A stretch of DNA of 61,558 nt, counting the filler, from Hausera hauseri (Eukaryota), in NCBI GenBank assembly GCA_046269625.1. It is 9 parts of 9 records of this genome, joined end to end, with 100 filler letters (N's around TTAATTAATTAA, not from the genome) between each part and the next. Parts side by side here need not be neighbours in the genome. Positions count along the whole stretch, not along the records: positions 36,773 to 52,089 come from JBJURY010455467.1; 8 more parts are not named here. One strand, given 5' to 3'. A program made the position numbers and the translations under genes. Shown piece by piece: positions 8,325 through 57,446 of this stretch (position 1 is the stretch's first letter; the number at the start of each line of letters is the position of its first letter). The notes beneath the pieces were generated by a model that saw nothing but the letters and a program-made list of their open reading frames with translations, did not search any database and was not told the DNA's origin.

Positions 8325-8362
8325 GGAGTTTTCTAGGGACTCTGCACTTCGTACACAAATAC

Positions 8363-15270: not shown

Positions 15271-15323
15271 ATGTATCTACTACCCCACTAAATTTTCGAA
15301 TCGATATTATTCGAAAACCATGT

Positions 15324-17076: not shown

Positions 17077-19320
17077 TCAGAGCATTTTCAATAAAACTGA
17101 TCCCGTATGTTCTCTCCAGTACTTATTTCCAGAAATTGTATTTATCAATGTTGTACCATTGGAACACAATTTGATCAGTGGGATCATATAATCCTGAATG
17201 TCAAATGTAACCAAACTTAACTTTTCTATCAAACGATCAAAATGCCTTTGTTGATCACCATCAACAACATTATCGCCAAATGCTCTATTTTTCACCTCCT
17301 TATGATTCTGGTAAATCCATCGTTTCAATGTCGATAATCCATTGTTGGACTTCATGAGCCAAGATGTCAAATGCATCAAATCGTCCAATTTATAAGTATC
17401 CGATTTATGAGATCGACTTATCAAATACGAATTTAATAATTTTTCAATCAGATACGACTTTGATGTTCCAGAAAGACCCACAGAAAGTTGGTTTGATTCG
17501 ACATTGAATGAGTCATTGAAGTTTGTGAATCGATTCCACAAAATATCCCAATACTCGTATTTATCATTAAATTTCATTCCATAGTATAAAATGTCTTCAA
17601 TTAAATGTTTTGGCAATTCTGTACTTTCAGGAGTTTGAATCCACTGAAGGAAAATTTGGGAAATGCAGTCTAGAACTATCGAATTTTCAATGTCACAACT
17701 TAAACGTATTATCGTCATTTCATGAATTTCCTCTATGAGACTCAATGAATTTCTATTTTGCAGTTGTATCAAATCTTTTACAACAATCCTCGATATTCTT
17801 TCAATGTATTTCTTCCATTTCAAAAATATACTATCAGTTCTAAAGAAGTTGTACATCTTTATGAACAATCGATCGTAGAATATTCGCCACAGAATCGGGT
17901 CACTTTCTTTAAACAAATTGCTCATTAAATCCTTTGTTATGGACAAATTGAAAGTGCCCATTTCAGTGAAATAGAGACTATCATCATAAATGATAACTTT
18001 ACTGATTGGTGGAATTAAAGATAGATTGGATTGTAAATTAAAGATAATTCTTTCCCACAGAATGTTACTGTAGTTAACTCGTAGATAAGATCTCCCATTG
18101 CTGTTTAAAATAAAGAAATCATCCATTGCAATTTTCTGTTGAATTGCAAGTGAATTTGTGAAGTACAAAGGAGAATGACTCATTTTATCTTTTGTTATGT
18201 AGGCAACATAAATAGGCCACTTGTTAATTGTATGGCCCTCTTTGATTGATGGTGTTTGTCTAATGTTTATAATGTTATTTGTCGCATAATAATTGACATG
18301 TACAACTGGATACCCTGCATGATGTAACCATGGTTTAAAATAATCTTTCATTGTTGTTGCAAATGCTTGATTTTCTGGTCCGAATTCATCGAAAATATCG
18401 AATAATTGTTCCGTTGTTGGATTTCCTTTTCCATACTTTGCCAAATATTTTGTAATGGCCTTACGAAAATTTGACTGCCCCATTATCCAATTCATCCACA
18501 CAATTAAGTTATCTCCTTTGACATATGTAAAGGCGTTGAATGTTTTTCGGAAGTTTTTCGGTAAAGTGACATTTATTATTATTGGACTTGCTTTACGGCT
18601 ATTATCAAAGTCTAAAATGTATCGTCGGTCATAAGCATAAAATTGGTCTTTTTGACTTTCATTAAAATGCAGAATGTTGTAAAATGCTACTGATTCGAAG
18701 TAAGTAGCGAATGCCTCATTGATCCATATTTCACTCCACCAAGATGCCGTTATCCAATTCCCGAACCAGATGTGAGCTATCTCGTGACCAATTACCATGA
18801 AAGGTCTAAGACGTTTAGCCTGACTCGATCTATTAGAAACCAACAAATTTCTTTCTCTATATGTTATCAATCCCCAATTTTCCATGGCACCTGAAATAAA
18901 ATTGGGAATATAAATATGCGCCGTTTTTGGAAAAGGTGATGTAATATTGCAGTAATTTTCCAGAATCGTTTCTGCTGCAATTCCGTAGTTTAAAGCCAAT
19001 GTTGCACTATTCGATTCATTTTTCGGGAACCAAACTTCAACCGTTGAATTTTTAGTTCTTTGTCTTGTTATCACTTCGAAATTTTGAACCAAAGCGAAAG
19101 CGACTAAATATGTACTCATTGGAATTAAGGTAGGTTCGAATGTTGTTAATGTTGCTCGAACACCATGTGAATAGAACTCATCAGTAGAAATGTACTGAGT
19201 AGAATCAATAAAATGTTTGTTAGTCATTGGCATATTAGACAATGCCGTATAATGTTCTTCATGTATTATCGATATAGAATACGTAGCTTTAATGTCTGGT
19301 TGATCAAAACATGGAAACAT
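17077..19320 (-). CDS. M1-family aminopeptidase N, uninterrupted 747-aa ORF lacking the N-terminal region
   Basis: FPCFDQP, PMSTYLVAF, GAMENWGLITYRE, HEIAH-x18-E (HEIAHIWFGN...WINEAFA), YVKG, W..HAGYPVV, YLRVNY, ERAP1-like C-terminal domain. Confidence 0.93.
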   Translation of the reverse strand: MFPCFDQPDIKATYSISIIHEEHYTALSNMPMTNKHFIDSTQYISTDEFYSHGVRATLTTFEPTLIPMSTYLVAFALVQNFEVITRQRTKNSTVEVWFPKNESNSATLALNYGIAAETILENYCNITSPFPKTAHIYIPNFISGAMENWGLITYRERNLLVSNRSSQAKRLRPFMVIGHEIAHIWFGNWITASWWSEIWINEAFATYFESVAFYNILHFNESQKDQFYAYDRRYILDFDNSRKASPIIINVTLPKNFRKTFNAFTYVKGDNLIVWMNWIMGQSNFRKAITKYLAKYGKGNPTTEQLFDIFDEFGPENQAFATTMKDYFKPWLHHAGYPVVHVNYYATNNIINIRQTPSIKEGHTINKWPIYVAYITKDKMSHSPLYFTNSLAIQQKIAMDDFFILNSNGRSYLRVNYSNILWERIIFNLQSNLSLIPPISKVIIYDDSLYFTEMGTFNLSITKDLMSNLFKESDPILWRIFYDRLFIKMYNFFRTDSIFLKWKKYIERISRIVVKDLIQLQNRNSLSLIEEIHEMTIIRLSCDIENSIVLDCISQIFLQWIQTPESTELPKHLIEDILYYGMKFNDKYEYWDILWNRFTNFNDSFNVESNQLSVGLSGTSKSYLIEKLLNSYLISRSHKSDTYKLDDLMHLTSWLMKSNNGLSTLKRWIYQNHKEVKNRAFGDNVVDGDQQRHFDRLIEKLSLVTFDIQDYMIPLIKLCSNGTTLINTISGNKYWREHTGSVLLKML

Positions 19321-19322
19321 TC

Positions 19323-19495
19323 TGTATCGTGTAACTCGTCGAGAAAAACGTAATTCGAATTAAAAATTTCGTGACTCATTTTTCTCCAAGGCGGAAAATC
19401 GGGGTCCGTCTATGTGCCCGACTCGCCGGCGGGGGAAAGCCCGACCGTGTCCAACCGAATGGGCCGGAGGGCAAACGGTCGACGCTGGCACCACA
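19323..19495. mobile_element. 173-bp TGT...ACA LTR-like unit containing the conserved 109-bp GC-rich terminus (19387-19495)
   Basis: 19387-19495 is the reverse complement of 36336-36444 with 13 mismatches in 109 nt, no gaps. Flanks CATTC/TGGAC do not form a TSD. Confidence 0.75.
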
Positions 19496-24939: not shown

Positions 24940-27008
24940 TCATAGATTGGAGCGGTGGGAGGTAGCAGGCAATGGCGCTTTAATGACAGAGTACATCTTA
25001 TGTCTGTTTATTCCTGAAAGTACTTCTCCTCCCTTGGGCTCGTCATCATCTGAATTATTTCTTCGTGTATTAGGTTTTGTAAATTTCCACTTGTATAAGA
25101 AAATAGGCCTCCCTTTTCGCTTGCGATTGTAATAACCGATATGGCGTTCTACGTCTGATTTCCATCTGTTCTGTTCGTATGCTTTTAAGAATTTTCCAAA
25201 AGGCGTTATGATTGCGGTCAGTATTTTACATGAAAATCCGATTAATGTAAATATTTCATATCCATTTATTACTGCTTGATGACTGCTTTAATCATATGTA
25301 TCACAAAATATGTCGCCAAGAATCCGGATGCGGCCTGCCTGAAGATCAAAAATCGTCCCCAAATTTTGTAGAGAATTTCTGTTGTTACTCTCTGATAATG
25401 GTTTACGCCAAATAATGATTCCCATTTAGCATGATATCGGGTATCGTCTATCACCGAGGCTATGGCTCGGTTTAATTTATGTGTTCGTTGTTGCGGAAAA
25501 GCGAGGAATTGTCTGAAGGCTTCGATTTCCTTAGGCTTGTATGTGCCTTTCGACCAGGTGTCTTGAAATTTATCGTCTGCAATTCCTTTCGTTAGGTTTG
25601 TTCCTGTTAATTTATTTGGAGCGGCAGTGATACCTCCATTTGGCAAACTAACCCACTCTGTTTCACTGCGTCTAAATATGGGCTTTCCTAAGCTGGCCTT
25701 ACAGTCTCTAAGGATGGTTGGTTGGGTTGAGTTATCCAATAGCACTCTCGTCAATGGCGTAGTTAACCTTGGAGTATTCTGATAAATAACATGGAGTTCC
25801 TGAATGCAACGTTTTTCTTCCACATTAATGGGTACATCTCTCTTTTCACATTTGTAAGTTATTAGTACTTCGCTTGTGACCCGACCGAAAATTCTCTCTC
25901 TCATAGGAATTATTGGAAAAGCCAATTTTGGGTTGGCATATATAATAGCCAATTTCGTCCTCATAATTTCAGTATCTAATTTGCAATCATTCATTATCAT
26001 TTTGTGATATAGTTCCGTTATTCCGACTTGCCCTTTATAATAGAAGTAATTGTCTCTGTTTTTTATGTAATCTTCAATTCGGACACCCTGCGTTTTTAAT
26101 TTGTATGATTTTGCATTTATTTCCGTTTCTGCGACGAAAAATGCCTCATAGTTAGTAGTGAACATCACTACGTCACAACGTGGGATTATCTCTTTTTTAA
26201 TGAATTACAGTCCATATTGATCTCAGATTAATATAGTGAGCGTAGGATGTTCTGATACGTCTTTGCGTATCCTTGAGATGGTATCTCATTTTCCACATAT
26301 CGCTTTCCGGTAGATTCATTAAACTTCAGTTCCTTAATTTTTTATAAAATTACAACTTCTTCCAGAAGGTGGTTCCCAGATTATAACAAAGCTTCTAAAA
26401 GCACATGTTCCATCTTTTAAATGACATTTCTGATTCTCAGTGTATAACTTAGTGACATTATGGAACATTACTTTCTGTGATCGCATCTCCGATTCGTAGA
26501 AATCTACGACTACCACATATGCTTGTAATCCTTTTCCGGTGCCATATTCTGCTCCGTAACAATGTCCACTATGCATATCTAACCTTCCGGCCACCACCTT
26601 GTACTCCCTAATTATCTTTCCTGGTTGCATTTCTAATTCCATACTATCCCATTGCACTCTTCCGGTCTCCTTAGCTTGTCTGCAATGCTGGCGTTCTAAG
26701 TTCATATGGATTAGCGGAGTTGTCGGTTTAATTATTGAGGAATGCTCTTGTACTAATCCACAATGAAAAATGCTACGTGATCGTCTCAGCATACATTCCA
26801 TTCCATCTAACGATATCAGTTCTTGTTGTTGGTACAGGAAGTAATTTTTCTCTCGTCTCCAACTTGTGTGATCTGGCATCTTTGCACATTTCCAGATCCA
26901 TTAGGGAATATCTCTGTCCTAGTGTAAACTTATCGCAGTCGTAGACGGTTACAGCGCCTATATGCTTTATTAGCATCATCAAGGTGAGTAAGCTAATTAG
27001 CAAATTTG
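24940..27008 (-). pseudogene. Chuvirus/Jingchuvirales-like envelope fusion glycoprotein (env), frameshifted; ends approximate
   Basis: Signal-like LLISLLTLMMLIKHIGA|VTVYDC..YSL.DLEMC; C..RRSRSIFHCG..EHSS; CRQAKETG; GHCYG.EY; CHLKDGTC..IIWE..C; NDCKLD; FGRVTSEVL..YKC; CIQELHV.Y; PLTRVL; C-terminal WGRFLIFRQAASGFLATYFVIHMIK..GYEIF.LIGFS.KIL.A TM region. This matches the chuviral G Cys/TM pattern as I recall it. Confidence 0.8.
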
Positions 27009-29872: not shown

Positions 29873-30201
29873 ACTTTTATACAGTTCTCCGCATACTGTT
29901 GTTCTTTTCCCGATATGTCCACTTGATCGCTAATCTGCTTAAGCCTTTCTAAATTTCGCTGTAGTATTTCTGGATCGTGACATCTAATTCTCATTTTCTT
30001 CAATTCATCGGCGTTTTTCCATGAACGTCGGACTTTCCACTTTTTTGGATCAAAATCCTCAATATTTCCAGTCTCTTTCTCACTAATGGGAAGTGGGTAG
30101 ATCTCGTTAATTTCATTAGTTGACTATTGTAGATTCTTTTATTTCGGTAGGTGTGAATGGATTGATTTTTGGTGTAGTTAGGCTATGTTCTGCGTCGCTT
30201 T

Positions 30202-31030
30202 CTACAAAGATATCCGTTTTTTCGTTTCTTCTATTTTCTTTCTAGTTATTTGTGACCGTGAACGACTACGGCCTCTATTTTTCGTCATTTTAAGTTTTAA
30301 TGGCTCCATAAATTCTTTTTCTGCTGCATCGTAATCGGCAGGTTTATCTACTTTTTCAACTGTAAACTCAGGCTCTGCATCTAAGTCGACTTCTGTCGAG
30401 GTGTCTAGTTTATCGGGTAGTTTATTACTCGTCGGAACACTCTTTTTCCGTGTCATATCAATTCGCTTGGGTGCTACTGCACGTTCATATTCAGTTTCTG
30501 ATTCTCCTAAACCATGATACACTTCTAGTAGTCTTAACTTATCTCCATATTCTTTTCTGGCCATCAGAATTTGTGGATTAGTAGTTTTAGACTGAGCGTC
30601 TAGGAAATTTCGCAAGTCTTGTATATCAATGATAGTACCTGTGTTTGCGCGAACACCATACTTTACTTCTAAATTTTCGTTAATTCCAATCATACTGGTT
30701 TTATTAGGCTCAGTAAATAAAACACTACGTGGGTTTGGACATGACCTTGAAATCTGTCCTTCTTTTCCGCAAGTGAAACAAACTAAATTTCCATTTCTGC
30801 CGACTCTCTGGCGGCTATCTTCGTTTACAGGTGACTTAGGCCGATTCGAACTTCTACTGTACTGGTTCTGTGCGCTATCCTTGCTTCTTCGGTTATCATT
30901 ATTTCGATTATCAGCATTACGATTCGAATAATCAGGTCCTTTGTAGTTTCCTCTATTCGAGTTAAAGTTTGGCCTGTTCATATTTCGGTCATTATAGTTT
31001 TGGTTAGTCCTGTAGACGTTATTGTTACTT
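30202..31030 (-). CDS. Gag C-terminus (Asn/Arg-rich + degenerate CCHC knuckle) of family A
   Basis: CFTCGKEGQISRSCPNP knuckle after an N/R-rich tract. Confidence 0.8.
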
Positions 31031-36335: not shown

Positions 36336-36444
36336 TGTGGTGACGGCGTCGACCGTTTGCCCTCCGGCCCATACGGTTGGGTGCGGCCGGGCTTTCCACC
36401 GCCGGCGTGTCGGGCGCATAGGCGGATCCCGATTTTCCACCTTG
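36336..36444. repeat. Conserved GC-rich TGTGGTG terminus of the cargo-cassette family (element runs into gap at 36673)
   Basis: 96/109 identical to the reverse complement of 19387-19495; homology stops at CCTTG. Confidence 0.85.
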
Positions 36445-36672
36445 AAAATGTCAATTCTAAATACTTTTCGAAAGGACTAGTGACATTGTTGAATTAACGA
36501 ATTTGAGACCTCTACTGCAAGTTTCTCCGATTTTTCGATCTGATATTCATACCCACGAAATGGGTGTTCCCGATGATTCTATCACAGACATTTTCGAAAT
36601 CACTGAAATTTAGCAGACATTTTATTGGACACGATCTATTTTTCAGCGACATTCTCGACGTGTTAAATCAGA

Positions 36673-38781: not shown

Positions 38782-39066
38782 TGTTATGTTTCGGTGGGCC
38801 CTAAACAACACCCAAACTATGACAGTAGACTTAAAATATAAATTAAAAAACGTGCCGGAAATATCCGGCGTTCTCGCTCAGATGAATGTGTCTAGATAGT
38901 TTTAAGTGCAGATATTGCATGCGCTTCTGTGTGAGAAATTATCAAATTCGCGACTTAACTATATATACTACACTGGATTTATCCTTAATGTTCTCGAATA
39001 TTCCTTAAGGGGTGATGGGAACTACAAACGAGATTTTACAAATAAGACTAATTTATTTAAATAACA
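38782..39066 (-). repeat. 5' LTR of family A (285 bp, TGTTAT...ATAACA)
   Basis: 6-bp inverted termini, adjacent PBS, and colinear blocks (CCTTAAG, TAAGGAT, TAAGTCG, CGAGAACG) shared with 52814-53094. Confidence 0.75.
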
Positions 39067-40396
39067 AATTCAAAATACCAATCGACGTACAGCGTCGTTA
39101 CTAGCTTGGACAACTAAGGTATGAATTCTTTTTACTAGGACAGCAACCTTCGAATCTACAACGTTGAACTAATGCACTTGACATAGTTTTCAACATTCTC
39201 TTCATTTGAATTTGACTTCATCACAATTTGCTTCTCTCCAATGTTGTAATCACAAAACAATTCAATTCTCTCAACTTTTAGGTTTGCTTACATAGACGCA
39301 GCGATGAGTGAGCATTTATCACTGATTACTTTTCAATAATTATGAGAGTTTTTCGCCATTTATCAGATTTGCTGATATTTAAAATTGGTTGATGGAGAAT
39401 AATCTCATTTAAATTTTGCTAATCGTTTTAAGGAAATCGACTGTGGACGTTTTAATTTTTCTAAATTACAGTTAGTTCATATATTATATACAATTATGTA
39501 CATTTATAACCCCCTAGTGGGTCTTTTCACAACATCACAATTTCTCTGCTTGTTTGTGTGAAATTGAAGAAGTACAAAATGGTGTAACATCCGGAGGCCT
39601 ATATTGCATAATCTTAGCTTTGTTTGCAAATTTGTAAAACCCCAAATTGCAGTAAGGTGCTGGTCCTTGTAAGAAACCTTATATTTAAAGCATTCCAATT
39701 GTAGTGAATAAATGACATCAGGCAAAGCATATTCAAGCAATGTTGTGAAGGTTTGTTGCAGAAATGGTGTGTTAGGGGAATAATCAGGGGACCTTTTAAG
39801 ATTATGAATTAATATCAATGAAAAATGTTGATTCCAAGGAGAATAAAGAAAAACGACACTCTCATAGAATGTTCAATCCCCACCAATTCCTTTGGGAGAG
39901 ACTCTTACGTAAATGATTAGTTAATGGGGAGAACAAATATCTTTAACTTGGTTATTCTATGTGAGTGGGTTTACAGAGATGTGATACGATGACCTACTTA
40001 ACTATTAGCAGTTAATATGTAGAGGTCACGTCTTTACTCCTAATTACTCACTACTGTTTACTCTCTTATAATTTACTTAGCATTATACCGGCAGTCGTCA
40101 TGTAACGTTAGACCTGGTCGACCAAATACCAAAATTATTCAGGTATTACTTAGTTAATTATCTTAGTTAAACAATCATTTACTCGTAAGATAATTAATAT
40201 AATTTGCAAAAAATGACGATGACAACTCAAGAAATACACTTACGAGTCGACATAATACAAATCGTTTCACAAAAATCGTTTTTCACTAAAACTTGTTCTA
40301 ATTACATGCGGTATATATAGTGCTCAAACAGCCGCCATTAAATCATAAAAATGGCCGGATTTGGTAAAAAGAAAATGATACAAAAATAAACTTTAA

Positions 40397-40555
40397 TCAG
40401 ATCAAAAAGTTAATTGTTTTTGTTTTTCAATTCGGGAAGTCATTTTTATTTCGAATCAAAAAGGTAATTATATTTTTTTATATCAGATCAAAAAGTTAAT
40501 TGTCATTTTATTTGTCGAAGGAGCATTTCTCGTATCAGATCAGAAAGTTAATTCA
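40397..40555. repeat. Four spaced copies of ATCAGATCAAAA(A)GTTAATT
   Basis: Copies near 40397, 40451 (diverged), 40482, 40534. Confidence 0.65.
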
Positions 40556-40849
40556 ATTCATTCATCAAAATTTCATCAAGAAGTCATAATTGACACTGTC
40601 AAATTAAAATTTGTTAAGTTTAGTAAAAGAAGGCTGATCTAAAATAAATTGTTGTCCAACGATTATAGCACAACCACGTTTGAGGAGTAAAAAGTCCATG
40701 TAATTTTAAAACACTAAGAAATGTAAAGAGAAACTTTATTTCCTTATTTTGAAATATTATTCCGATTTCCTCAATCTACCATTGCTATTTCCTTATATTT
40801 TCTTTGTCGTAGACTAATGTATTCTGGATTGTTTCCTATGCCGCTTATT

Positions 40850-41680
40850 TCAGTATCTTCTTTTTAAATCATTTCTGTAATTAACTCTGCTATAGTTGTC
40901 TTTGGTATCATCATATCTTTGTCTATAGTATCTTCTTTCATAATCTTGTCTGTCATCACTTGTCGGGTCATGGTCTTTCCAGCATAGATTTCGGCTGTAA
41001 TTACATTGACCATCAGGACATATACTGTCGCAGTCTCTCAAGTAGTAAAATCTTCTTTCGTATTCTCTCCTGATGTCATTTCTGCTGCAAGAGAATTTAT
41101 TTCCATTATATCGAATGTCATTGTCTCTCCTATCATAATATATACGGTCATTATTTTTGCTGACATATGCTTTGCTATATGAATGGTTTCGACCTGTATG
41201 GTTTATGTGTACATAATAGTCTCCGTGTCTATTATGGTTGCTATCATGATCTCTATGGTCATGGTATCTACTGTTGTTGTTTCTTTGGCCATTATATCTG
41301 CTTCCTTGATCTCTGTAGTTCTCAAGTTTTCCTTCAAAGTCACTTCCGTGACCATTGTAGTCTCTGTTCTTATCAATTTCGTTGACATCCGAATTGCTTT
41401 CGAAAAATCTCTTGTCATTATCTGTACTTTTGTTTTGACTTGTTTCTTCGCCATTTTGATTTTTGTTATTCAGACTATTACACTTGTCACAGACACCGTC
41501 ACTCTTTGTAAAATCGTTTTTGCTTTCGTAATAGATTTTATAATAGTCAATATCTTCATTGTTATGTTTTTGTGCTTTGGAAACATCCGTATTAAACTTG
41601 TCTTGAATAAATGGTGCCGTGGGTGTTACTATAACATCGTAGCCTTTTCTCAAATCTTTTGCACTGTGAGGACTTTTCAT
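40850..41680 (-). CDS. Hypothetical Arg/Asp/Tyr/Asn-rich low-complexity protein
   Basis: 276-aa open frame in very AT-rich DNA; repeated RREYERR/RQDYERR; no family recognised. Confidence 0.4.
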   Translation of the reverse strand: MKSPHSAKDLRKGYDVIVTPTAPFIQDKFNTDVSKAQKHNNEDIDYYKIYYESKNDFTKSDGVCDKCNSLNNKNQNGEETSQNKSTDNDKRFFESNSDVNEIDKNRDYNGHGSDFEGKLENYRDQGSRYNGQRNNNSRYHDHRDHDSNHNRHGDYYVHINHTGRNHSYSKAYVSKNNDRIYYDRRDNDIRYNGNKFSCSRNDIRREYERRFYYLRDCDSICPDGQCNYSRNLCWKDHDPTSDDRQDYERRYYRQRYDDTKDNYSRVNYRNDLKRRY

Positions 41681-43738
41681 TTTAAATTTAATAACTATTC
41701 AACTTGTATTATAAATACGCAGTATAGAAACAAAAATTTTCTAACTATAATGTGTTGTGCAGTAGGTTAAAGTTAACATAGAATTGAAAAATTATGTGGT
41801 GTTGCATCTTTTAGTCTGAGAAATCTTGCAAAATGTTACAAGCAAACAACAACAAGTACCGATAATACAAAAAGTATTGTCCAGAACTCAGTATTTTCTA
41901 AATGATGGTAAAAATAATTTACATATTTAAATTCAGTTTAAAAAGTCATTTTACTAAACACATTTTCATCAAAACCTATGATTTGTATTTGCAGTACTGA
42001 AGCCATACACAAAATGTTTATAACATTTGTTGGAAATTTTATTCATCAACATTTTTGGTATCTCAGTGAGTTAAATTAAGTAATCAGGGCTCCTCTTTAT
42101 TTCCTACCAAATTTAATTTACTTTTTACAGCATTTAATCTGGATGAGCTTTGGCTTTTAGATGTTGCTCTTGTGCAACATTTTTATTCAATATATTATTA
42201 TTAATCAACATTAGATTTTTCATCTCGTTTCGGTTTTGAATCACTGTGAGTTCGGACGGTGGTTTGCCAACATTTTCGTTAGCCGGTACTTGTTCATGTG
42301 TCGAAAATTTTATTTGAAATATCACAAAAATTTTAATAAGAGAATTAAATATAACGGGATTTTAGTTTATTAATACTTCAATGAAAGGTATCAAATTGAT
42401 TTTCATCAAAAGGAGAATACTGTTTCGTAGTAGGAGATTGTATTGATAATTTCTGTCGCATTAAAAAATTTTGAGAACCGAATTATCGTGTCGTAGTCGG
42501 AGTTGATAAAGTTTGTGTTGTAGAATTATTATTATTGCTTTCGTCGGAATGGAAAATATTTCCATATAGAAAAATTGTCTGAAATATAGTATCTGGTCAT
42601 AGTAAGTATTGTTGAAATGGGAAAATTGAATTGAAGAATAACGAAATTGTTTTGAAAATTTGCGCTTAACGCTTGTCGAAAGTAGGAAATCGAATTGTAT
42701 GAGAGTAAAATTTAGAAGATTGTGTATAGTTTTCCTTTGATGGCGGTTAATATACCGGCTGGTGTGTATTTTGCCATTGGATGGCATTTTTTGAAATCAA
42801 ACAGATGCCGCATATGAGTCATTATGAAATCATTATGAAAAATTATGTATGCGTAGTCACACGACACCCGAAATTGTATGACTCATGAGTTACCATGATT
42901 TTAAACGTGATAATCTGACTCAAATGAGTTATCAAAATTTTAAATTAATTAAAAAATTTTAAAAATAATGAGTGAAAAAATTTTAGCATAGAATTTTGAT
43001 TTTAATTTTAATTTTATTTATGTAATTTTACACATTTGCTATTTCAGCTTGGACAGGGAGCAAGTCCCGCTATTTCGTGACAAAATGTGCCAGTTGAAAA
43101 AGCTCTTCAAAACTTAATTTTGGTGGAATACTTGAATATTGCACTCTATATTTCAATATACTAGTATTCACAATTTTTGATATATCTACTATTATTCAAA
43201 TAATTAATTATTTAGTTATTTTGCAGCCTCTGAGTAACAAATTATGTACATTACACAGAAATGGAGGAGATATCCATCAGGGAGTTTAACATATTAAAAA
43301 CAGGATGACATTTATATATACAAGGCATTTATTATTTATAGAGCAATATAAAATAGTCATTGTCAAATATGTCTGCACTGTGAATGTGATCACAAATTAT
43401 TGTTATTAAATGGTCAATATTATTAAATGATCAAATGTTCATTATCGGCAAGTTCGTATGTTTTAAAGTTCGGACGATATTGTGGTTTTTACATTCGGAT
43501 CGATTAGATTTTGCATTTGAATTTTTGTATCGTATTTTTCGAGTTAAAATGGTAAATTGATTTGGTTATTCTGGTTGATTTTGGTAAATGGAATTTGATA
43601 TTTGATTTTCGGGTTCACCTGATTAAGAAATCATAACACATTTAAGAGGAAATAATAATAGTGAAAATGGCCGATACCCTCATTTAATAACTATAAAATT
43701 TGTTTAATAAAATATAAACCATTCTAAAGCATTATCAA

Positions 43739-44155
43739 ATGAATCGTTTAATCAACATCTTCAGAAACGCTAATCACCTCCTTCTCAGTCACCCATTGCC
43801 TGACGATAATATTGTCGATCAGAATACCGTGGACATTAACAATAATGTTCTCCCCAACATTGCTGATGGAAATAACAATTCCCTTGAAGTAATTGGAGAG
43901 AATCAGTTGAATTTGAATAATGAAGGAGACAATTCAAATAATGTCAATAGTACAAACAATTTTATTAATCTTGAGGCAAGTGATAATCAGAGAGATGGAA
44001 ATAACAACTTTATTGATTTCAATGATACCGATGAGGAAATTTATTCGGAGGGCAATGGTTTCGATTATAACAGCTATGTGGAATATGAGGATTATGAGAG
44101 TGATGAATCCACAAACGATTCGTTTCCTGATGAATCTTCTAATGATAAGTACTGA
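43739..44155 (+). CDS. Hypothetical Asn/Asp-rich acidic protein
   Basis: 138-aa ORF, AAAATG start context, AATAAA at ~44223. Confidence 0.35.
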   Translation: MNRLINIFRNANHLLLSHPLPDDNIVDQNTVDINNNVLPNIADGNNNSLEVIGENQLNLNNEGDNSNNVNSTNNFINLEASDNQRDGNNNFIDFNDTDEEIYSEGNGFDYNSYVEYEDYESDESTNDSFPDESSNDKY

Positions 44156-46614
44156 AAAGTGAAAACATACGAAATGATGTGAATATGAAAAAAGTTCTAA
44201 AAATGATTCAATTTATTCATTTAATAAATTTTTATTTGTAATACTGATTTTTCATGGAGATTGAGATAAATTTTCATTGTTTGTTAATACCGATGCAATT
44301 TTGTTTTTGATTAGCATGTATGCATTTGATGTTGTCGCGGTGGTGGATCTAGATTTGTGCACTTAACTCCTCACGCTTATCGAATGTGGATTTTGTCAAT
44401 TTTATCAACTACTACTGCACTTCCGTCATTTTCTTTTTCAGTATCGTATTCTGCTCCAGTGCATATTCCTGTATACATGTCTGATTGTCCGACTGCTACT
44501 TTAAAAGATCTAATTCTTTTTCCTTGTTGCATCTCGAGCTTTATGCTATCCCATGCTAGTCTACTAGTTTGTCTTGTTTACAGTGTTGTCTTTCCAAATT
44601 CATTGGAATCGATGGAGTTGTCGGTTTTATTTTCGATAAATGCCCATGCATCTGTCCACAATGGAAAACACTACAAGATCTACGTAACACACATTCTACC
44701 CGTCTAACGATATTAACTCCCGCTGTTGATAGTGCATAAATTTTTCCTTGGTTTCTAATTTGTGCGGTCTAGCGTCTTTGCACATTTGTAAATCCCTCAA
44801 TGAGTACTTTTGGCCAAGTTTGAATTTATCACAGTCGTATACTGTCACAGCTCCCTTTTGTTTTACGAACTCCATCAATGTTAGGAAATTAATTGGCCAA
44901 TTTGAGTCATTTCCTCAATTATTGCCCTTTGATGTCAGATTCCTTACTACGTCTTCGATTCTGCTAACATTAATACTACAGGATGGTCTAGACTGGCAAT
45001 CGTCTTCTTTTCCAAACAATTTAGGTCAATTTATTTCACGGGGCAGCTTCCTGACTGCTTTCTTGGCCAAGTTGGTGGCTTTATTAAGTTTGTTTTCCCA
45101 CATTGGGTTCGTTTTAATAACCAAGTATGGCAGTTCTTTTCTTAATTCTTTTATTGTATTTTCTACCATGATTTCTCAATCATCATTTCGTCGGTCAGAG
45201 TACATTGTAGCATCTTGTACACCCATGACTCGTCCTACACATTGCTGTCTTCTGACTTTATGTGTAGCTTCTTCTTTTATGTCCTAATTGGCGATCGTAA
45301 CTACTACATGATTTGTTTCGTTTGGGATAATTCCAACATCTATTAAGGATTCTAATTCATCTAATATTCTTCCTCTGAAATATAGTGGATAATTTACGTC
45401 GCTTTTAGCCGTAGTTTTACGTCTCTAACGCATGAGGCCGCTGTGCACTCACATTCCTCTTTATCCATCCATTCAGACCACACTTTTACTTTAATCGTCA
45501 CATCGGGTTTATCCCTTAAGATTTTAGCACATTTTCTTCATAAGAATTTCGGCACAACACTAAAAGTCGTGTTTTCGCTAGATGACTAAGTTAAAGTAAG
45601 GATAAGTTGTCATAGTCTATTTTCAGTGGTATTTACATTAAGTAGCTCAATTAAATCTCAGTTAGCGCTGGATACAAAACCACTGAATTTCCGATTCTGT
45701 GAGTACATTCTCATTTCGTGAAGATATACTGGTGTTTTCGGATTTTCTTCCATTATTGCATCCATATATGCATCCCATTCTGGATCGTTCTCATTTGCTG
45801 GAGGTCCGTAGTCAATAACTGAAGTATATAGTTGCCGTATTAGATGTGAATTTTCTCGTATCATACCAAGTCTCCTTTGTATCTCAGTTATCCGTACTGT
45901 TTGAAGCCCGATTCCATAATAGTAGATATGTTGTAGGATAATCAATAATTGGCACATTTCGTCTGCTTGACTAAATCCTTTTCCTTGATAAGTAGTCCAT
46001 TCTGATGTTAATTCGTGTTTCTATCTTGACGCAAATTTTGATTTATTGGCCATTTCTAATTCCGTAAACTCGTACTTTTTCCTATAGGTTTTGATTTCTC
46101 TAGTTACCTTTTCCATTTCAGTTTTCCTTTGGTTAGTACGAATACGGGTTTTCTGGGTATGAAGTATCTGGCTTTGCAATCGCCTCATTTTCTGATCACT
46201 GATTTCGGTTATTTCGTCTAATAACAATGTTAATTTGTCCACTTCCTTTAACGTTTTAGATTCCGAATCGATTTATTCAATTAGTTTTATACCAAAATTA
46301 GATTCCTCAATGATAAACTCGTGATCGATCATTGTTTCTATTACGTCAGTGTGCCATTTCTGATCTGATCCTGGTATCTAATTTGAAGGATTGTGCAGAA
46401 ATTTTAACGCACCTTCTATAGAATTTTTGTAATCGGAACAGGTATCTAATACTTTTAGTTCTTGTGATGTAATTTCACTTAGGGGTTTAGTTTTCAGATA
46501 CTGGATTCCTTCTAAACGAATATTTCTAGTTTTCTTCAATCATTTTGTAAACTTCACTCAGCAACGATATTTCTTCGTTTCTGTTCATAAATTTCAGTTG
46601 TCGTAATTAATTCG

Positions 46615-48388
46615 TGTAGATTAGATGGGTTTTCGTTCCAGATTTATCGGATTACATAAACAATGTCAAATTCTTCTGATCTGTATTAAATTGTACACAC
46701 CTCATGGTGCCATGCTCGACTATAGCAGGTCGAGTTCAATAACACCATAATACAAATTTGGCATCGACTAGGAATTTCGTATATTTTATTTCTGAAATCT
46801 GAGATAAATCCTGCATGTTTGTGTACGAATTTCTCACAAGGAATAACCTCCAACAAACCTTTAGCTAAACTTGTTTGAACTTTACCGGTGCATAAAATTA
46901 TCTTCCTATCGCTTGGAATCGTTAGCAATTTAATAGTTTTGACAGTTTTTTCAGGTATTCCTCACTAAAAAACGATGGATCAACAATGACAATGCCAAAT
47001 TGATTGATTAAATTTTCTGGAACTTCCGTTGGAAATTTGTAATCATATTTATCAAACATATATTTGTTAAATCGATTGTCACGTTCAAGTAAAATCGAAT
47101 AGATGCTTTTCTTCTATAATTTCAAATGCAGAACGAGACACCTCACAAACCACTTTCGATATTTCAGTTTTATTGACATTACTGCATTTACCAATTTTTC
47201 CGTTATTTCATCATCATACCGAAATTGTGATAATTGCCGATTTCCTTTATCTGTTTAGCACCGGAATTGTCATGTACCTCTGTCCTGTGATTTTCGGATA
47301 AACTCTGTTAGAGCTTTCAAAGTTTCTGGAGTTAAATACAAATCATCGTCATAAAAAATCATTCTGAAATTTTCAAGTCAAAAGTTTAATTTAGATTAAA
47401 CGTGTTTATTAATTTAAACATGTAGATAATTTAAATTTTTTTCGTTACATTCAAACGAAACGTCCATTTCTTTTGAGCAAATAAACGCGAAAAAAGAAAG
47501 AGAGCAAATCGACTATATAGCGAACTCCGTACTTGTCCACTATTGCACTAACCATGATAAAAATAAATATAAAAAATCACGGCAACGTTTCGTGGGTAAT
47601 AAATTTTTTAACAAATGTATAATTAACGATTTATACTGTATAGCTTTTATGGACAAAAATGTTTTTAAAGTCAATCGTTGAAACAATGGCATTCAATGCA
47701 GTATTTTATCAACAGTACCGATTAGATCTTTAATCCATTAAATGCATCTGTGGAGATTGTCAAATTGACATTGTTCGACAGATAGAGAGATTCGAGTTTA
47801 CTCAACAACGAATACGTTTTGGATTCGGTAAATTTCACTTTGCAATGACGAATTAAGAGTTGTTTTATTCAAATATACGACGGAACAAATTGGGTAAAAT
47901 TATCTGAAGATAACGAGGAAATATAAAAATTTTGATTGGTAGCTGAGTTTTTCGACGGTTGATGAGATTTTGTCGGGGAGATTGTTTCTTCCTGGACTAA
48001 TACAGACTAAAGTTTCTTTAAGACACGTCTGAAAAAAATGGGACAAATAATATCTGGATATGAATTGGTATTGAATACATTGTTAAGTATGACTATGACT
48101 GCTTTGATAATATTCATTTTTATATCGATTCAAACGTTATTTAAGCCACTGAATTTACTCGGAACTTTGTGATAAAAGAACTCTGCCGTCTCTGAAAACA
48201 ACTTCGGGTGATGGAAATAGATTCTCATGCCATTCACATAATTTTATTCTTGTGGGGTGATCAGTTGTCTGCCAATTGAGCAAAGACGAAAAAGGCGAGG
48301 GCTGAGGAGGAAAACATACCGGTCTAGCGGTGGGGAGAGCCACGTTTAACACCGAAATGGCGTCGACACCTCCAACCACGGCACCACA
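46615..48388. mobile_element. 1774-bp TGT...ACA cassette with 5-bp TSD ATTCG carrying an EEF1AKMT1-like gene
   Basis: ATTCG(46610-14)|TGTAGA ... GGCACCACA|ATTCG(48389-93); family A accessory-region sequence lies on both sides. Confidence 0.88.
46780..47362 (-). pseudogene. EEF1AKMT1: EEF1A lysine methyltransferase 1 (N6AMT2)-like, disrupted
   Basis: Manual translation gives MIFYDDDLYLTPETLKALTEF, LSQFRYDDEIT, LLERDNRF, YDYKFPTEVPENL, FGIVIVDPSFFSEEYLKK, KIILCTG in order, matching N6AMT2 motifs LS..ALAAL.EF, LSQFWY, EYD.RF, YDYN.P, FDIVIADPPYLSEECL, KILLCTG. Confidence 0.8.
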
Positions 48389-48593
48389 ATTCGCGTGTGA
48401 TAGAATATCTGTTTCTTCTCTCATAGTGTCCAAATCCCGCATGATTTCATTCATTTCTTGTTTCAGTATCGGTTTGACATTTGGATATTCCTCTATACGA
48501 TTAATTATTATTCGGGTTAATTCAATCAACAATTCGGACCATTCTTTTAATTGGTTAGCAATTATCAGTTTGGCCACCTTTGTTTTATCCAGC

Positions 48594-50265
48594 TATTCAT
48601 CCTTTCATATGGAACTTTCAGTGGACAATGAGTGACAAAGGGCCAATGCCAGAATTCGGCACGGTAGCGAAAATCATCGATCTTATGCAACATTTCTTTA
48701 TGGCGATGAAGAAAAACCAAAAGCACGTCATTTATTATCGAATATAATAAATCTGTCAATTCCCTGTTTGGTGTTTTGTAATTGCTGTAGTCCTTTTCCA
48801 AATCTTTCTGAACCAAAAACGCATCGATGTCGGTAATATAAACCATGATATCTTCAAGAATAATATCCTGAAATCAACCATAAATTTCTTATTCATAATT
48901 TTCACCGCCTCAACGAATACTCCAATAATGGAAAATATTTTACTCTGATTATTATTGACGATTAAAGAATTTCGATATGCTTCAAACGAGGGATTTCCGA
49001 ATAAAATCTAAGAATTTGTGCTGATCGCCTTTTAATAAGTTGTGCTCGCCTCTGATCATCTTTTAGTCGAGGCAAATTGCGGCAATTACGTTGATATTCT
49101 TCACCGAGTGGTCGTTGGTTCTGAACAAGATCATAATAATGTGTGTTGCTTGTCAGTACACTATCCGACGAATAATAATTTAATAATCTATAGTTATCAG
49201 TTTCAATTTTCGTCGCGCGTTCTCTAAAAAAATTCATTACCAATTCTTCAACTTCTCCAACGGAAGGGATAGTCACAGATAGCTAACTTGATCTACCGAA
49301 TCCGTCAACTACGACTGACTGTTCATTAACCGACTGTAACGAAGGACAGACTTCTCGTAGATCGTTGACGAACGGTTTGAAATATTTAAGTTTCTGACCA
49401 GTGAGTCCACTGTCTGTACGAACAGTCAAATTAACGAGAAACGATGCCGATTGGAGCACCCGTAAAAGTGACTTGTAGATCAGACTGTTGCCAGAAATAA
49501 TCAATGATCGAATAGGAATAGAATGGAACAAGACTCCAAGATGGAAAACATACGACAGTCCGTTAATGCTGAGATCCAGTTCATTTAACGATAATCTGCG
49601 GATCGTCTGCAGCAAATTGGTATCGGCCTTCACGACAACGTCACAATGCTGGACGCTGAATGGATCAGGAATTTTCCGACAACTCGTTTTAAACATATCC
49701 AAACTTATATCCATCAATTTGACAAATACAATTGCATATTCCGATGTTGATCAGTAATTGTACGTTTGTAACAATCGTTCCATATGATTATTGTGTACCG
49801 TTGCTACATTTGCAATTCCTGTCTAATCCACTCGGAATCGAACTGAATATCATGTGTAAAAGTAACCTTGGCCTATAAATTTGAACCGAACTCTTGAATA
49901 AAATTTTTTGAATTTCGAAATTTAACACTTCGACTGGAATCCTGATTTGCGTCCACATTTGTTTTTTTAGTGGATATTTCAATGCGCTCATAATTATCAT
50001 TTCTGATAAATTTCGCTACATATAAAAATCTCTGTCAAATTGTTATTTCTGCCGTTATGTATTCATTTAAACTATTTTTTGTCCAAACATAAAAAAACGC
50101 CACAACAAACGGCACACATAAGGGTCAACAAATCCGGCATTTTCAGTTACGTACGACACAAAAGTTGGAAGATCAGACCCAACTATGGATCCGACGCGGC
50201 GGCAACGGACGCCCGGCCGTGCCTGAACAAATGGGCCAAAGGCACCGTCCGCTGTGGGCACCACA
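48594..50265. mobile_element. 1672-bp TAT...ACA cassette with 5-bp TSD CCAGC carrying an NXF1-like gene
   Basis: CCAGC(48589-93)|TATTCATCC ... GGGCACCACA|CCAGC(50266-70). Excision restores minus-strand AAAATGCTGGATAAAACAAAG = KMLDKTK, homologous to KMLNKAI in ORF 28799..29296. Confidence 0.88.
48650..50000 (-). pseudogene. NXF1: Nuclear RNA export factor NXF1/TAP/Mex67-like (RBD-LRR-NTF2L), disrupted, no UBA domain seen
   Basis: WTQIRIP (cf. WFKITIP, RBD); LNELDLSINGL..IRSLIISGNSL (LRR); LVMNFF..RLLNYYSSDS and YQRNCRNLPRLKDDQRRAQLIK..EIPRLKH (cf. [29 protein letters not shown]); FSIIGVFVE; SIINDVL (cf. CIVNDEL). Confidence 0.75.
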
Positions 50266-52089
50266 CCAGCATTTTGTGGTAATCTTTTAGTCTGTCGTCT
50301 GGTCCTTTATAAATCCCATAATTTGTTTGATATAGTTAAACTAATTTTTATATTCGTCGAACTCCAAGATACACGCTTCAATTAGAGCTTTTGTTTCTTC
50401 ATTATTTAAATTCATTATTCGGTTTCTTATGTTATAAATTTTTAATAGCTTGTCGTTTTCTTTCTTGATACGAACTTCGATATTTTCATACTGTTTAGGC
50501 TCAGTAAACGCAATTTCCATCATCTCCATCAGGGTTGAGATATCTACTGCGTCGACACACAATATTTTTAAATCATTCTCGTTTCGTAAATTCCATGGTT
50601 TTTCTTTCAATCTGTTCATATTACGGTTTACTCGTTTTGATTTCGAATTATTTTCTAACGTTGCTATTAATTCTTGAGCTTTAATTATTTTCTCGTTGGT
50701 TATGATCCCAGTTTTGGTCATAATTCTGGAATATGAATTCCACTTTTATCCACAGATTTAATTCATTTTTCCACTTGTCTATCAAGTCCTGAGTTACCTC
50801 AATGCTGTTCCTAGCCAGAAATATCCACTTGTTCAGTTATCATTTTAAGTTTTTTTATGTTTTGCCGTACTATTTCTGGATTCATCGGTGCGTCTCCGAT
50901 CTGTCTTAGCTCATTGGCATTTTACTTGGCTTCCTGATTTACCACATATTTTTATTGAATTTTTCAGATTGTTCTGTCATCCTCGCTAAGAAGTAAATGG
51001 CATATTTCGTTTATTTCATTTGCTGATTCAGTTGGTTCCTCAACAGTAATTGCCGTATTAAAACTAAGTTTCACGTCGCATTCTTCAAAGATTTCAGTCT
51101 CTTTTGCTTTCTTTAATTTTCTTTAGTCATTAAGGATCGTGAACGGCCTTTGCGTTTCCGTTTTATAGATGGGCTTCGACCTCTATTTTTCGTTATTTTA
51201 AGTCCTGGTGGTTCCATAAACTCCCTTTCGGCTTTGTCGTCTTCATTTCCTTTCTCCACGTTTTTAGTTGTATACTCAAGTTCCGCGAATAAATTTACGC
51301 CTATAGATGTTTCTTGTTTATCTGTTTTATTAAGTGTTTTATTTACTATGGGGATATTCTTTTTTCTTGTCACATCGGTTCGCTTCGGCGCTATGGAGTA
51401 CTCATATTCGGTTTGTGGCTCTACAGACTGTTGTACACTTCCATTAAGGACAACTGATTCTTATATTCTTTTCTAGCTTTTAGAACTCGCAGATTATTAG
51501 TTTCTCCTCGTTTTCTCGGTATATCTTCCTAAGTCTTTCATTTCAGTAACCATATTTATGTCCCCTCGGACACCATATATTGCCACGAAGTTTTCGCTAG
51601 TCTTAATCGCACAAGTTTTATTAAGCTCAATGAAGGATACTCTTCATGGATTCGGGAATGACCTTGCTATATATCCTTCCTGACCACACGTATACCATAT
51701 TAGATTGTAATTTCTTCCGAGTCTTTGTCGACCATCTTCATTTATATGTGATTTCGATATACTCATATTTCTATTATTGTTCTGGCCCCACAGACCTTGT
51801 CCATTATTCTCATTCTGTCGACTATCATTATTTAGATTATTATTATTTCGATTTCCATCATCAGAGTTTCTACAACTATTTTGCTTTGTATCTGCATTAT
51901 AGTTTGACTTTCCAGTGGAATTATTCATATTCCGGTTACTACCGTAATTTCTACTATGCTATCGGCTATTTCTATTATCACTATTACTGTTTTGGTTTCT
52001 ACGTATTATAATAACTTCTATTACTGTTATTAAAACGTCTATTATCTCGGTCTCCATTATCGCTTCGGTTTTTATCGTTGTGATCATTT

Positions 52090-52813: not shown

Positions 52814-55507
52814 TGTGAAATATATTCTTGTATTCTAAAGTTACTTTTTAGTTTTCCAGTCGCTCCTTAAGAGGGACTTGACTACAGTAAGGATTAAATT
52901 CAAGAGTAAAATTCATGGCTAAGTCGAGACGTTTTAAAATTCTGTACAGGATATTGTATACAGTACACACATATTAAACTTGGTACAACATTTTAACGAG
53001 AACGTTAAAACTTACCTGTATATTTAATTTCTTAGATTTCAGTGCAACTTATTGTTATAGTTGGGCGTTGCATATGGCACCTTCAACTATAACAATTGGC
53101 GACCCTAGCAAGACAGTTTTCACCTTCATAGATTTTGACTTTCACAGAAAATTAACGGAATATTAACGATCAGCGCTACCGCATTAAGTAATTGATTATA
53201 GAATTGTTAAGAAATCAAATTTGGGATATAAAATGAAACCCTTAGTATTTTAACGGCATAATATTGACTTGAGAACAAATATTGATAGACACAAATTATA
53301 TGATAGTTTAAATTGAGTTACTAATGATAAAAAAATATTGATTTACGCGAAACACGCAATAAGGTTTATAGACAGTATAAAACATTGAATAGACGTGTGT
53401 TATCTGAGACAAACTTAACTGATATTGAACCGATTGACTTGAACGTTGCTGAGCAATCCATAGAATTTAAAATTCCTGATAAGAGAATTAGAACTCGTAA
53501 GTTAAATAAGCAAAATTTAAATAATGCAGAAAATATGGCTGAAAATGAAGCAATAGCGCAGAAACTGGACATTTTCACATTTGACTCTCTGAATCTACCG
53601 GCGAACGACGGAGACCCAGACGGATTGAATTAATTCTTAAGAACTTATAAATTGCATGCAGAAGGTGCCGGACTTGCATTTAACGTAATGATTAAGCTTT
53701 TGTCATTATATTTAAAAATTTGGCCGCTGATGCCTATAGTGAACTCATTGACGACGAAAAGAAATTTTGGTTCTCCCTAGTAGAAGCCATAAATCGAAAA
53801 TTATTACCGACGGTAACTCCGCAACAAAAACTTATTGCTTTCCAGAATAAGATGCAATAGAAGGGTGAATTGGTTATCCAGTTTGCATTTGCATTAAAGG
53901 AACTTGTGAATAGTTACGTGAATACATGAAGGATAGCTAATGTAGCTAAGGCTAAAGACGATGCAGAGTGCTATGCCATAGAGAAGGCAAGTCCTTCAGA
54001 TTTAGACGTCGTGACGACGACGCAATTAATAAATGGTAGCCGCTCTAGAGACATAGTGAAATAGTTGATTTTAGCTCGACCAGAAAACTTTGACAAAACC
54101 TTGCAGCTAGCCCAAAACTTAGAAATGGCACTGGGTAGATACGCCAGCCAAAGCGATAGAAATAATCGTTATGATAGAAACCGGAATGATAATCGCGGTA
54201 GAGATAATAGACGATTTAATAATAATAGAAATTATGAAAATAGAAATCAGAATAGTAATAATGACTACAGAAATAACCGACATGGCAGCAGAAATTACAG
54301 CAATGATCAAAATAATTCATCTAGCAAACCAAACTATGGTACAGATAGACATCCAGGCAGTCATAGAAATATTAATAATGGAAACCGATATAATGATAAC
54401 TTGTTCAAACTCACGACATGTTTCGTTCGTTGAACCTAGCAAAACTAGCGTAATAAATAACTAGAATTTAGACGCAATTAACGGTATCCATAGAGATGCA
54501 AGTATGGTTACTGAAATGCAGGACTTACGACGGTTTTTAAATGTCAAGTTGATACTAACGAACCCAAATTTTTAATGGCTAGAAATGAATATGAGCATAA
54601 GTTACGACTGCTAGAAGTTTATCATGGTCTTCCTGAGCCAGAAACTAAGTATGAGCGCTCGATAGCCCCACGAAAATAGACCGACATGGCACGGATAAAG
54701 AATGTTCCCGTAATTAATAAAGTGACAGATAAACCGGATAAACCGAAAACATCAAACGAAGTAGATTTAGACGCTGAGCCTGAATATACGGTCGAAAAAG
54801 TGAACAAGATTACAGAAGTTGGTGAAGAAAAGGAATTTATGGAGGTCGCGATCCCCAGTGACTAAGGAAAAATTAGAGGAAGCAAAAGAGACTGAAATCG
54901 ATTCAGAAAGCGACGTAGAATTCTCTATAAACACACTAGAACTCGGTTCAATTACACCCATTTGAGTAGAAGAGTTAACAGAATCGATTATTAAAGTAAA
55001 CGAAATATGTCCACTTCCTTTAAGCGAAGATGAAAATGATAAAATGAAAAGTTTGATAAAAAGATATGGAAAATCCTGGAGTCATGAAAAAATGCTGACG
55101 CATTAAGAAAAATCAGAGACGCTCCTATAAATCCAGAAACAATACGACAAAACTCAGATGAACTCCTCTGCATAGCCCAGCAAATAGATATTACTGGCAA
55201 AGAGAAACAGTTCGTCCAACAAATTCATAGAAAGCTAATGTCATACGATGAAAGAAAATTGGATGGTATAATCGACTCAAATGAATCGGCAGAATTGCCC
55301 CGAAAATTGATAGAAAATGGAAACATCAATTAAGCCTGTGGATAAAGAGTGGAATTAGAGCTCAAGAATACTGGGCTAAAACAGAAACCACAACTAAAGA
55401 GAAAATAATTAAAGCTCAGGAATTACTAACGGCACTTGAAGCCAACGCAAAGTTAAAACGAGTGAGTCGCAAGGTGCAAGGATTGATGAGCAGAATCAGA
55501 TATAATA
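52814..55507 (+). mobile_element. Family A copy 4: 5' LTR (~52814-53094), PBS (53097), gag and start of accessory region, cut by another Gypsy
   Basis: ...CTATAACA-AT-TGGCGACCCTAGCAAGACAG; NRRVLSETNLTDI, ILARPENFDKTLQLAQNLEMAL, EVDLDAEPEYTVEKV, IIKAQELL..LEAN.KLKRV shared with the other copies. Confidence 0.85.
53097..53105 (+). promoter_or_regulatory. Primer binding site TGGCGACCC (tRNA-Arg type)
   Basis: 2 nt after the ACA LTR end; same as 38768-38779. Confidence 0.8.
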
Positions 55508-55509
55508 TG

Positions 55510-57446
55510 TGTGAGGATATAATCGAGCAATGAGTATTTACGAACGATCAAATTTCGCTTCAGCGAACATACCAGGCGGTGGGAAGTTTCCAATCCTCCC
55601 TAAGCGGGGCGACGGTGTGGATGGCGTGGATGCACGCAGCTATCATGACGACTTACGCCACAACGGACATCTTCAAAAACCAATTGTTGCCAAACAAATT
55701 CAGGAAAGGTGACGACGTGGAGAAGTTCATTAAAGGATGTGAAAAATTCTTTAAATACATTAACACCCCAGCGGCGAAACGGTAAATCATGGTTGAATGC
55801 CTCTTGGATGAAGAAGCACAAGAAAGATACAATGCAATAGACGCAAATATAACTGGATACCAGTACCGACTACGGAAGGCTTTCGCCTAACACTCAACGC
55901 TGTGTGAAAATCTGAAAGAAGCGCTTGAGTACAGAATAAATGGAGCAGAACGGGAGGCTTACTTCAAGGCAATCGAGAAACTGCTGGATAAAGTCATGAA
56001 ACACGATCTTTCTCGCGAGGCTCTAAAAGAGGAACTATTGTTCCAATGTTGTAACAATAGAGAGATGAGAAGAGAAAAATGCGTCAGTAACAAACGAGAC
56101 GCGGAAACTATAAAGGAAAAAATACGGAAGATGCACGAAGTAAAGATTAAGACCGACGATGTAAACATGGTCAAGAATTATCCGGGGATCGGTAGAAGAA
56201 GCTACCAGGAAGTGGCAGCACAAAATATTAGGAAACCAGTTCCTAGAATCAACACGACGCCACTTAGATCGCCAAATAGTAAATTTAAGTGTTGGACATG
56301 CCAGAAAGAAGGATATGAGAGCAAAAGGTGCACCACATTGAGACCAATTACATGTTTTGGATGCGGAAAAGAAAGACAAATAAGCAGGCAGTGTCCCGAA
56401 AGAAATCCACTAAGATGCTACTCATGTGATTACAATAGGGGACATACCGAAAAGGAGTGCTACACCAGGCTGGAGGGGAAAAGAGAACCAGGATGGAATA
56501 CATACAAAGAGAAAAGAAGGTTCGGGGATAATCTGTACAGAAGACGGGGCCGAGTCGCAAACGTAGAGCAGGAAGAAACAAAATCCGATCAGGAGTCACT
56601 TGCCCCAAAAGGCCGAGCCTCTATAGAAGTGGAGCAAATCGGGGCACTACAATAGATTCCGTTTCCCAAAATATCGTTATGTATAATAGTAGTATTATAT
56701 CAAACACTATAGACGGATCAAGAAGAAATGGATACGGAGATATATTGATGGATATTTATGGATATTTAGTATGGAAATTTATGAAAACGGAAAATTTCCA
56801 GAAAGTATCCTACAACGGAATGGAGGAAAGTGGGAACGATACTCAGATCTTCACGCTAGAAGAATTGTATGTCGAACAGACATCATACAGGAAGTTTAAT
56901 GGACGACCAGGAATCAAATTAAAGATACAAGACAGATGGGAAGATTGCTTATAGGACACAAGGGTCAGGGTAATCGTCATAAGCAAAAAGATCGTGGATC
57001 AACTTGCAAATACACACATAGAGAAATCAGATACCACACTACGATGCGCAAACAACAACCCCTTATATTGCCTGGAAACACTTACAACAGACGTAGAAAT
57101 CAAGAGTCTAAGGAGACGTGTGACATTTCTGATAGTGTCGGAATTACGCCCAGAAATAATAGGTGATGTGGACCTGCAAAAGGCATTCGGAATAGAACTG
57201 GGGTGGAAACACACTGAAACGGAAATATTACAACAAGATATATGCAACATGGAGGCCAAGTTCGGCCGTAAGGTGAGTAACCAAGAACGAGTCAATAGAG
57301 CGAAGGAAGCTCTTCAGGTGAGTGACAACAAAGAGCTACTCAACATTATACAGAAATACCCAGAGGTACTCATGGCCGACAAGTGGGACATAGGGTGCAC
57401 ATCTCTCATCAAACACCGAATAGACACGACAGGAGCGCCGATTAAT
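55510..57446 (+). mobile_element. Second Ty3/Gypsy family: short putative LTR (55510-55662), gag with three CCHC-like knuckles, protease, pre-RT region
   Basis: LLPNKFRKGDDVEKFIKGCEKFF gag N-terminus; CWTCQKEGY..C, CFGCGKE..SRQC, CYSC..GH..KEC; DCL*DTRV protease remnant, IIGDVDL, DIGCTSLIKHRIDT. Confidence 0.8.

Follow-up and report, generated by a model that had tools for sequence, protein, structure and literature searches.

A solo-LTR-like insertion carrying a decayed NXF-family fragment, probably a chance passenger of an LTR family that takes up host mRNA scraps

The DNA analysed here, a stretch of 61,558 nucleotides from Hausera hauseri that we call the window, consists of nine short AT-rich contigs joined with N linkers. 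Two sequencing runs contain the stretch: X1, which has 46% of its words and may be the source sample, and X2, which has a small share at low depth and was used just for the junction near 48895. Since X1 covers both element bodies and empty sites, we treat it as a DNA run, although its kind (DNA or RNA) is unrecorded. The contig at 36773-52089 holds a decayed Gypsy-like element into which a discrete unit, cassette A, has been inserted, and the features of this locus are as follows.

44404..52089, minus strand: decayed Gypsy-like element into which cassettes A and B have inserted, and a homologue of the one at 19917-31030
48594..50265, minus strand: cassette A, a solo-LTR-like insertion of 1672 bp, which begins TGTGGTGCC and whose last bases are GAATA (not CA)
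50266..50270: right copy of the target-site duplication of cassette A, CCAGC
48589..48593: left copy of the same duplication, CCAGC
50160..50265, minus strand: GC-rich (61%) family head of about 105 nt, common to cassettes A, C and D and very deep in X1
49867..50155, minus strand: 5' cargo of cassette A (the RBD of the initial annotation), with no family match in any frame
49819..49866, minus strand: intron-like GT..AG segment of 48 nt, present in cassette A and missing in three X1 contigs
49283..49750, minus strand: NXF-type LRR piece with an in-frame stop on either side (49751-53, 49283-85)
48962..49282, minus strand: linker and first part of an NTF2-like domain (PF22602 positions 11-91 of 158), with a frameshift near 48965
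48897..48986, minus strand: probable further NTF2-like stretch in another frame, a weak colinear match (E=2.6)
48594..48896, minus strand: 3' block of cassette A, with high X1 depth from 48619; either the tail of an LTR or an older second cargo

Comparison with the related, uninterrupted element at 19917-31030 places two breaks in the Gypsy-like ORF, at 50267/48592 and at 48422/46606, and each break holds one insertion bounded by a perfect 5-bp duplication, CCAGC for cassette A and ATTCG for cassette B, both within the 4-6 bp by which a solo LTR is recognised. The interrupted ORF resumes past cassette A, and X1 contigs of related Gypsy copies join across the A and B sites, as expected of empty sites. 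The mobile cassette with NXF-family sequence proposed in the initial annotation is therefore real as a discrete unit, while its extent, placed there at 48650..50000, is in fact wider. Cassette A has a TG start and an ATA end, cassette B runs from TG to CA, and neither has terminal inverted or direct repeats above shuffles, their end-to-end scores lying in the shuffle range. The 3' block of cassette A contains an open frame of no known family (48568-48873) and a single AATAAA at 48736, and the last 22 or so bases of the cassette are unmatched by the high-depth X1 contigs. In another frame the block gives a weak Pfam NIF match (E=0.047); an identity as NIF phosphatase found no PDB support and was dropped.

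The homology of the interior to the NXF family is clear. The ORF at 48965-49282(-) matches Pfam NXF_NTF2 (PF22602) over model positions 11-91 of 158 with E=2.6e-8, and its score of 34.6 bits exceeds the cut-off of 27. In the PDB, the five top matches of this ORF are all NXF1 or Nxf2, with human NXF1 at E=0.0013. The longer frame, 48965-49750, searched with X at its stop against 1.84 billion representative proteins, matched three proteins, two of which (P0002 and P0003) belong to the NXF1 family, carry LRR_NXF1-5 and NXF_NTF2 domains, and are colinear with query positions 48-260 at 28-35% identity; the top phmmer match, P0001, is an FN3-repeat protein and was set aside. Scored against P0002 as well as P0003, both ORFs, LRR and NTF2, exceed 500 of 500 shuffles. 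The LRR ORF alone, which has no direct Pfam match to LRR_NXF1-5, scores 85 against the LRRs of P0002 and P0003, where the maxima of 500 shuffles are 59 and 56. A profile built from P0003, P0002 and the frame reaches human NXF1 at E=1e-23, a signal that comes mainly from the two database proteins. Searches for further relatives yielded little: word-index protein searches gave no NXF relatives of near or greater length, the profile of three sequences recovered nothing from the proteins but its own member, the ESM Atlas held no usable match for the NTF2 piece (best 0.80) or for the 3' frame, and a single-sequence AlphaFold model (mean pLDDT 36) was set aside.

The initial annotation was thus right about the NXF family, and its reading of the ORFs as RBD-LRR-NTF2L holds for the LRR and for the NTF2-like domain, although the latter is cut short, reaching about 48909 past the frameshift, some 33 residues before the domain end in P0002. 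The RBD is not confirmed: the first ORF (49788-50015) has no Pfam match in any of three frames and is unmatched to the N-terminus of P0003, a single full-length comparator that a very diverged RBD could escape. Absence of a UBA domain agrees with the lack of any TAP_C match in the six frames of cassette A. The four ORFs do not, as had been thought, fill the cassette almost wholly, since NXF-matching sequence makes up 854 of its 1672 bases (51%) and the fourth ORF (48756-49007) lies mostly in the separate, high-depth 3' block. Set beside the NXF1/TAP family as described in the available part of one account (PMC4330390), the copy shares an LRR followed by an NTF2-like domain in colinear order; unlike the family, it has no RRM match, a truncated NTF2-like domain, no UBA and a broken frame, with two stops in 284 codons and one frameshift.

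Cassette A is one of four insertions of this kind in the window. Its first 105 or so nucleotides recur at 19495(-), in cassette C, and at 36336(+), in cassette D, with 74 of 119 columns shared between A and C (above 1000 of 1000 shuffles) and 97 of 116 between C and D, and the head pattern, which occurs three times in the window, does not occur in 100 shuffles. The head of cassette B is weakly related (B-C p=0.002, B-D p=0.009, A-B p=0.15).

46615..48388, minus strand: cassette B, TG..CA, duplication ATTCG; begins TGTGGTGCC and shares its Gypsy ORF with cassette A, at a distance of 200 bp
17077..19495, minus strand: cassette C, the head joined to an aminopeptidase N (APN) frame, with a polB-like right flank
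36336..36672, plus strand: cassette D, the same head, ending at the contig end

Cargos were identified in three of these four cassettes, and all are different, only one of them (NXF) being linked to RNA export. Cassette B carries a broken EEF1AKMT1/N6AMT2 (PF10237, E=2.7e-15) together with an LRR_8 piece below the cut-off (E=1.7e-4). The APN frame of cassette C, 760 codons long, stop-free, intron-free and 5'-truncated, is the best-preserved cargo in the window; the 3' end and target duplication of this cassette were not found. The 3' ends of A and B are unrelated to each other, and the Gypsy LTR tails in the window (38782, 53093) resemble neither. Beside the four heads there is no polypurine tract, primer-binding site (PBS) or second LTR within the window. 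Folding gave no evidence for a structured RNA, all four heads lying in the shuffle range (z -1.56 to 0.57), with a consensus covariation term of 0.45 and one sub-threshold Rfam match. The head pattern had no match in viral contigs, and two matches in metagenome contigs, which come from one unrelated sequence otherwise dissimilar to the window, were attributed to chance.

The run X1 shows how unevenly the parts of cassette A are represented. Contig depths sum to about 19,500 at the head and to 1,400-8,700 in the 3' block (48619-48913), compared with 51-252 (median 90) in the interior; the head is roughly 200 times deeper than the NXF part, whose depth is about 0.5% of that value. As summed depth is a rough proxy and not a copy number, we place weight on the gap, which amounts to two orders of magnitude, and on the contig counts, which are 123-124 at two head sites and 1-7 at the listed NXF sites (1-2 at most of these). 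Contigs nearly identical to the cassette have depths of 15-22. One contig of 227 nt, at depth 58.6, spans the joint between the NXF part and the 3' block without the frameshift, and a few sisters therefore share the truncation of cassette A and are better preserved at the frameshift site. Among the 40 of 61 majority differences listed, neither stop codon of the NXF frame appears, and 16 fall in the confirmed part of that frame (11 nonsynonymous, 5 synonymous; codon positions 5/5/6), with omega at 0.66-0.86 (interval 0.21-3.2) and neutrality not rejected (p=0.30-0.48), in a test made weak by few sites, mixed contigs and no polarity and in which the differences may mostly be cassette A's own decay. 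Furthermore, three X1 contigs (depth 14 and 22; joints read by eye) skip a net 48 nt with GT..AG ends, 49819-49866, hinting at an RNA step. This intron-like segment is separated by 69 nt from the LRR frame downstream of it and is at most a candidate NXF intron; if X1 is DNA, contigs without this segment would reflect splicing during RNA copying.

We propose that cassette A is probably a solo LTR of a family that takes host mRNA scraps into its LTR, and that the NXF sequence is a chance passenger. The TG start, the 5-bp duplication, the fixed head, the changing and chimeric cargo, the intron-free APN and the intron loss all fit a transcript-capturing solo LTR, and the APN frame and the precise GT-AG loss in three contigs point in particular to an RNA step. 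As no head in the window has a polypurine tract, PBS or partner, we infer the LTR identity from the termini and the duplication. Capture purely from spliced mRNA is argued against by the intron-like segment that cassette A retains. In the sequence of events that we envisage, reverse transcriptase, once past the head, would have left the RNA of the element and continued on host transcripts as template, with the result, apparent in the window, that the same head fronts different host genes. The contents of the LTR would then be copied in every round, which may account for the few NXF-bearing sisters and for possible intron loss, and either recombination between LTRs or integration of a single LTR would have left the solo unit. 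The sequence itself shows that a discrete unit landed in the Gypsy-like ORF, leaving an integrase-type duplication, and that this copy has decayed. With heads in the hundreds to thousands, chance capture of an NXF gene is unremarkable: if 900-4000 independent captures and 10,000-20,000 genes are assumed, any given gene would be caught with a probability of 4-33%.

The atypical end of cassette A leaves some room for a one-ended route, in which a DDE enzyme would use the head as its sole true end together with a chance second end, moving pieces of genomic DNA or pre-mRNA, with no full LTR ever involved. We give this route a small chance. It would account for the unrelated 3' ends of A and B, for the missing CA and the intron-like segment in cassette A, and for the absence of a polypurine tract and PBS beside all four heads; the intron-free APN frame, the two-gene chimeras and the precise GT-AG loss are nevertheless a better fit to RNA templates, and the 3' block of cassette A is itself of high depth, like an LTR tail. 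Terminal inverted repeats are a feature of Pack-MULE, Ginger and Transib elements, and their absence here sets cassettes A and B apart from all three.

Capture from transcripts by an LTR element has a close precedent in LTR-mediated retroposition in animals, for which the available part of Tan et al. 2016 (PMC5131818) documents capture by template switching, two-gene chimeras and renewed copying of what was captured. Partial copies of host genes joined to LTR-element sequence are common to both cases. In that system the retrocopy replaces the internal sequence between the 5' and 3' LTR (PMC5131818, same part), whereas here the cargo stands behind a fixed head of 105 nt, the whole unit lies inside the target duplication and there is no second LTR. 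Cassandra, so far as the accessible text describes it, also holds host-derived sequence within its LTRs, although as one conserved 5S rRNA piece that gives a promoter (10.1101/2023.07.14.548913), in place of the changing protein-coding scraps seen here.

The initial annotation had suggested an adaptive capture, as a private export factor or a decoy, and this gains no support, as the copy is broken and truncated, the same head fronts unrelated genes, NXF-bearing copies form a very small share of the family, and comparison with the sisters gives no sign of purifying selection, at low power. Of the single, neutrally decaying copy that had been set against an adaptive capture, the neutral-looking differences are indeed found, whereas the copy is not single, a few sisters being present. 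Broken frames are no argument against a role at the RNA level, in which the NXF piece would be kept because small RNAs from the element knock down a host NXF silencing gene, with no intact frame required. We think the odds of this slim. In its favour are the several NXF-bearing copies in X1 and the Drosophila precedent of TART-A and nxf2, a retroelement likewise carrying NXF-family sequence (PMC7785250, in the part available), and a second account reports, in its accessible text, that piRNA genes are involved in 8 of the 9 captures made by telomeric elements of Drosophila (PMC13534243). As the accessible parts of these two accounts present it, TART-A is a non-LTR element with piRNA evidence, most or even all of its copies contain the fragment, families with a capture have larger numbers and captures of this type measure 140-235 bp (PMC7785250, PMC13534243). 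Here, in contrast, the NXF sequence is about 850 bp long and sits amid unrelated cargos in a tiny share of the family, at about 0.5% of head depth; the genes in neighbouring cassettes have no known silencing role, and the chance capture rate estimated above would apply to NXF as to any gene.

A role at the protein level, in which the product of an intact sister would be an LRR-NTF2L protein lacking the UBA, with the task of exporting the element's RNA or of titrating NXT1 or silencing factors, is unlikely and in our judgement has scarcely any chance of being correct, since the NTF2-like domain is truncated by about 33 residues and, also in the deeper contig, runs into foreign sequence, and there is no RBD match, no UBA and no selection signal; the two stops and the frameshift of cassette A, the absence of either stop codon from the 40 of 61 majority differences listed and, as weak evidence, the failure of protein searches to give an intact relative weigh against it further, set against the lack of a frameshift in that contig (depth 58.6) and the finding, in the available part of PMC4330390, that NXF1 domains, together with NXT1, make up a platform for CTE binding even when the UBA is missing.

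For NXF biology a decayed fragment carries little weight. For transposon biology the interest lies in changing pieces of host genes behind a fixed head at high number, four heads being present among short contigs that total 61 kb. An LTR family of this kind would contribute on a large scale to gene fragments, to exon shuffling and possibly to small RNAs against host genes. Hundreds of cargos per genome would provide the null distribution that is missing from the Drosophila cases, against which selection on captures of silencing and export genes could be tested. What is added here is the NXF cargo, the evidence of a few sisters and the possible intron loss; neither an LTR-borne NXF copy nor flatworm LTRs with gene fragments were found in the literature covered, which took in little of the subscription literature. 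It is conceivable, if a long shot, that the family samples the host transcriptome and that the NXF lineage is an early selected capture acting through small RNAs or a UBA-less LRR-NTF2L protein. If true, preserved NXF copies would turn the host export or silencing machinery to the element's benefit, making this an LTR counterpart of TART/nxf2.

The window contains several further mobile elements. The uninterrupted Gypsy-like element used for comparison has the following features.

19917-31030, minus strand: Gypsy-like element with RT, integrase and an env-like gene of F type (PF24664)

Its order is gag-like, long ORF, env-like (PF24664), protease-like, RT and integrase, with env before pol, and a further ORF follows at 19865-20407. 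The Gypsy LTR tails at 38782-39040 and 52838-53093 have the same PBS type and about 250 nt in common, and show no relation to the 3' ends of cassettes A and B. A stretch of 5.5 kb (38782-44330) with no Pfam match separates a truncated env-like gene from the LTR tail and PBS of the next element (TGGCGACCCC, at about 38779), and contains low-complexity ORFs at 40850-41698 (-) and 43718-44155 (+) and short tandem copies at 40396-40565; this could be another cargo-filled LTR position. GC-rich islands with a TG start occur in 16200-16640 (16418 +) and 55560-55662 (55662 -), neither matching the head profile, and a 35-bp tandem pair lies at 16242-16311. Finally, decayed polB-like sequences at 2127-4443 and 10929-15676, with an endonuclease VII-like match at E=0.014, are present, and we take them to be of Polinton type.
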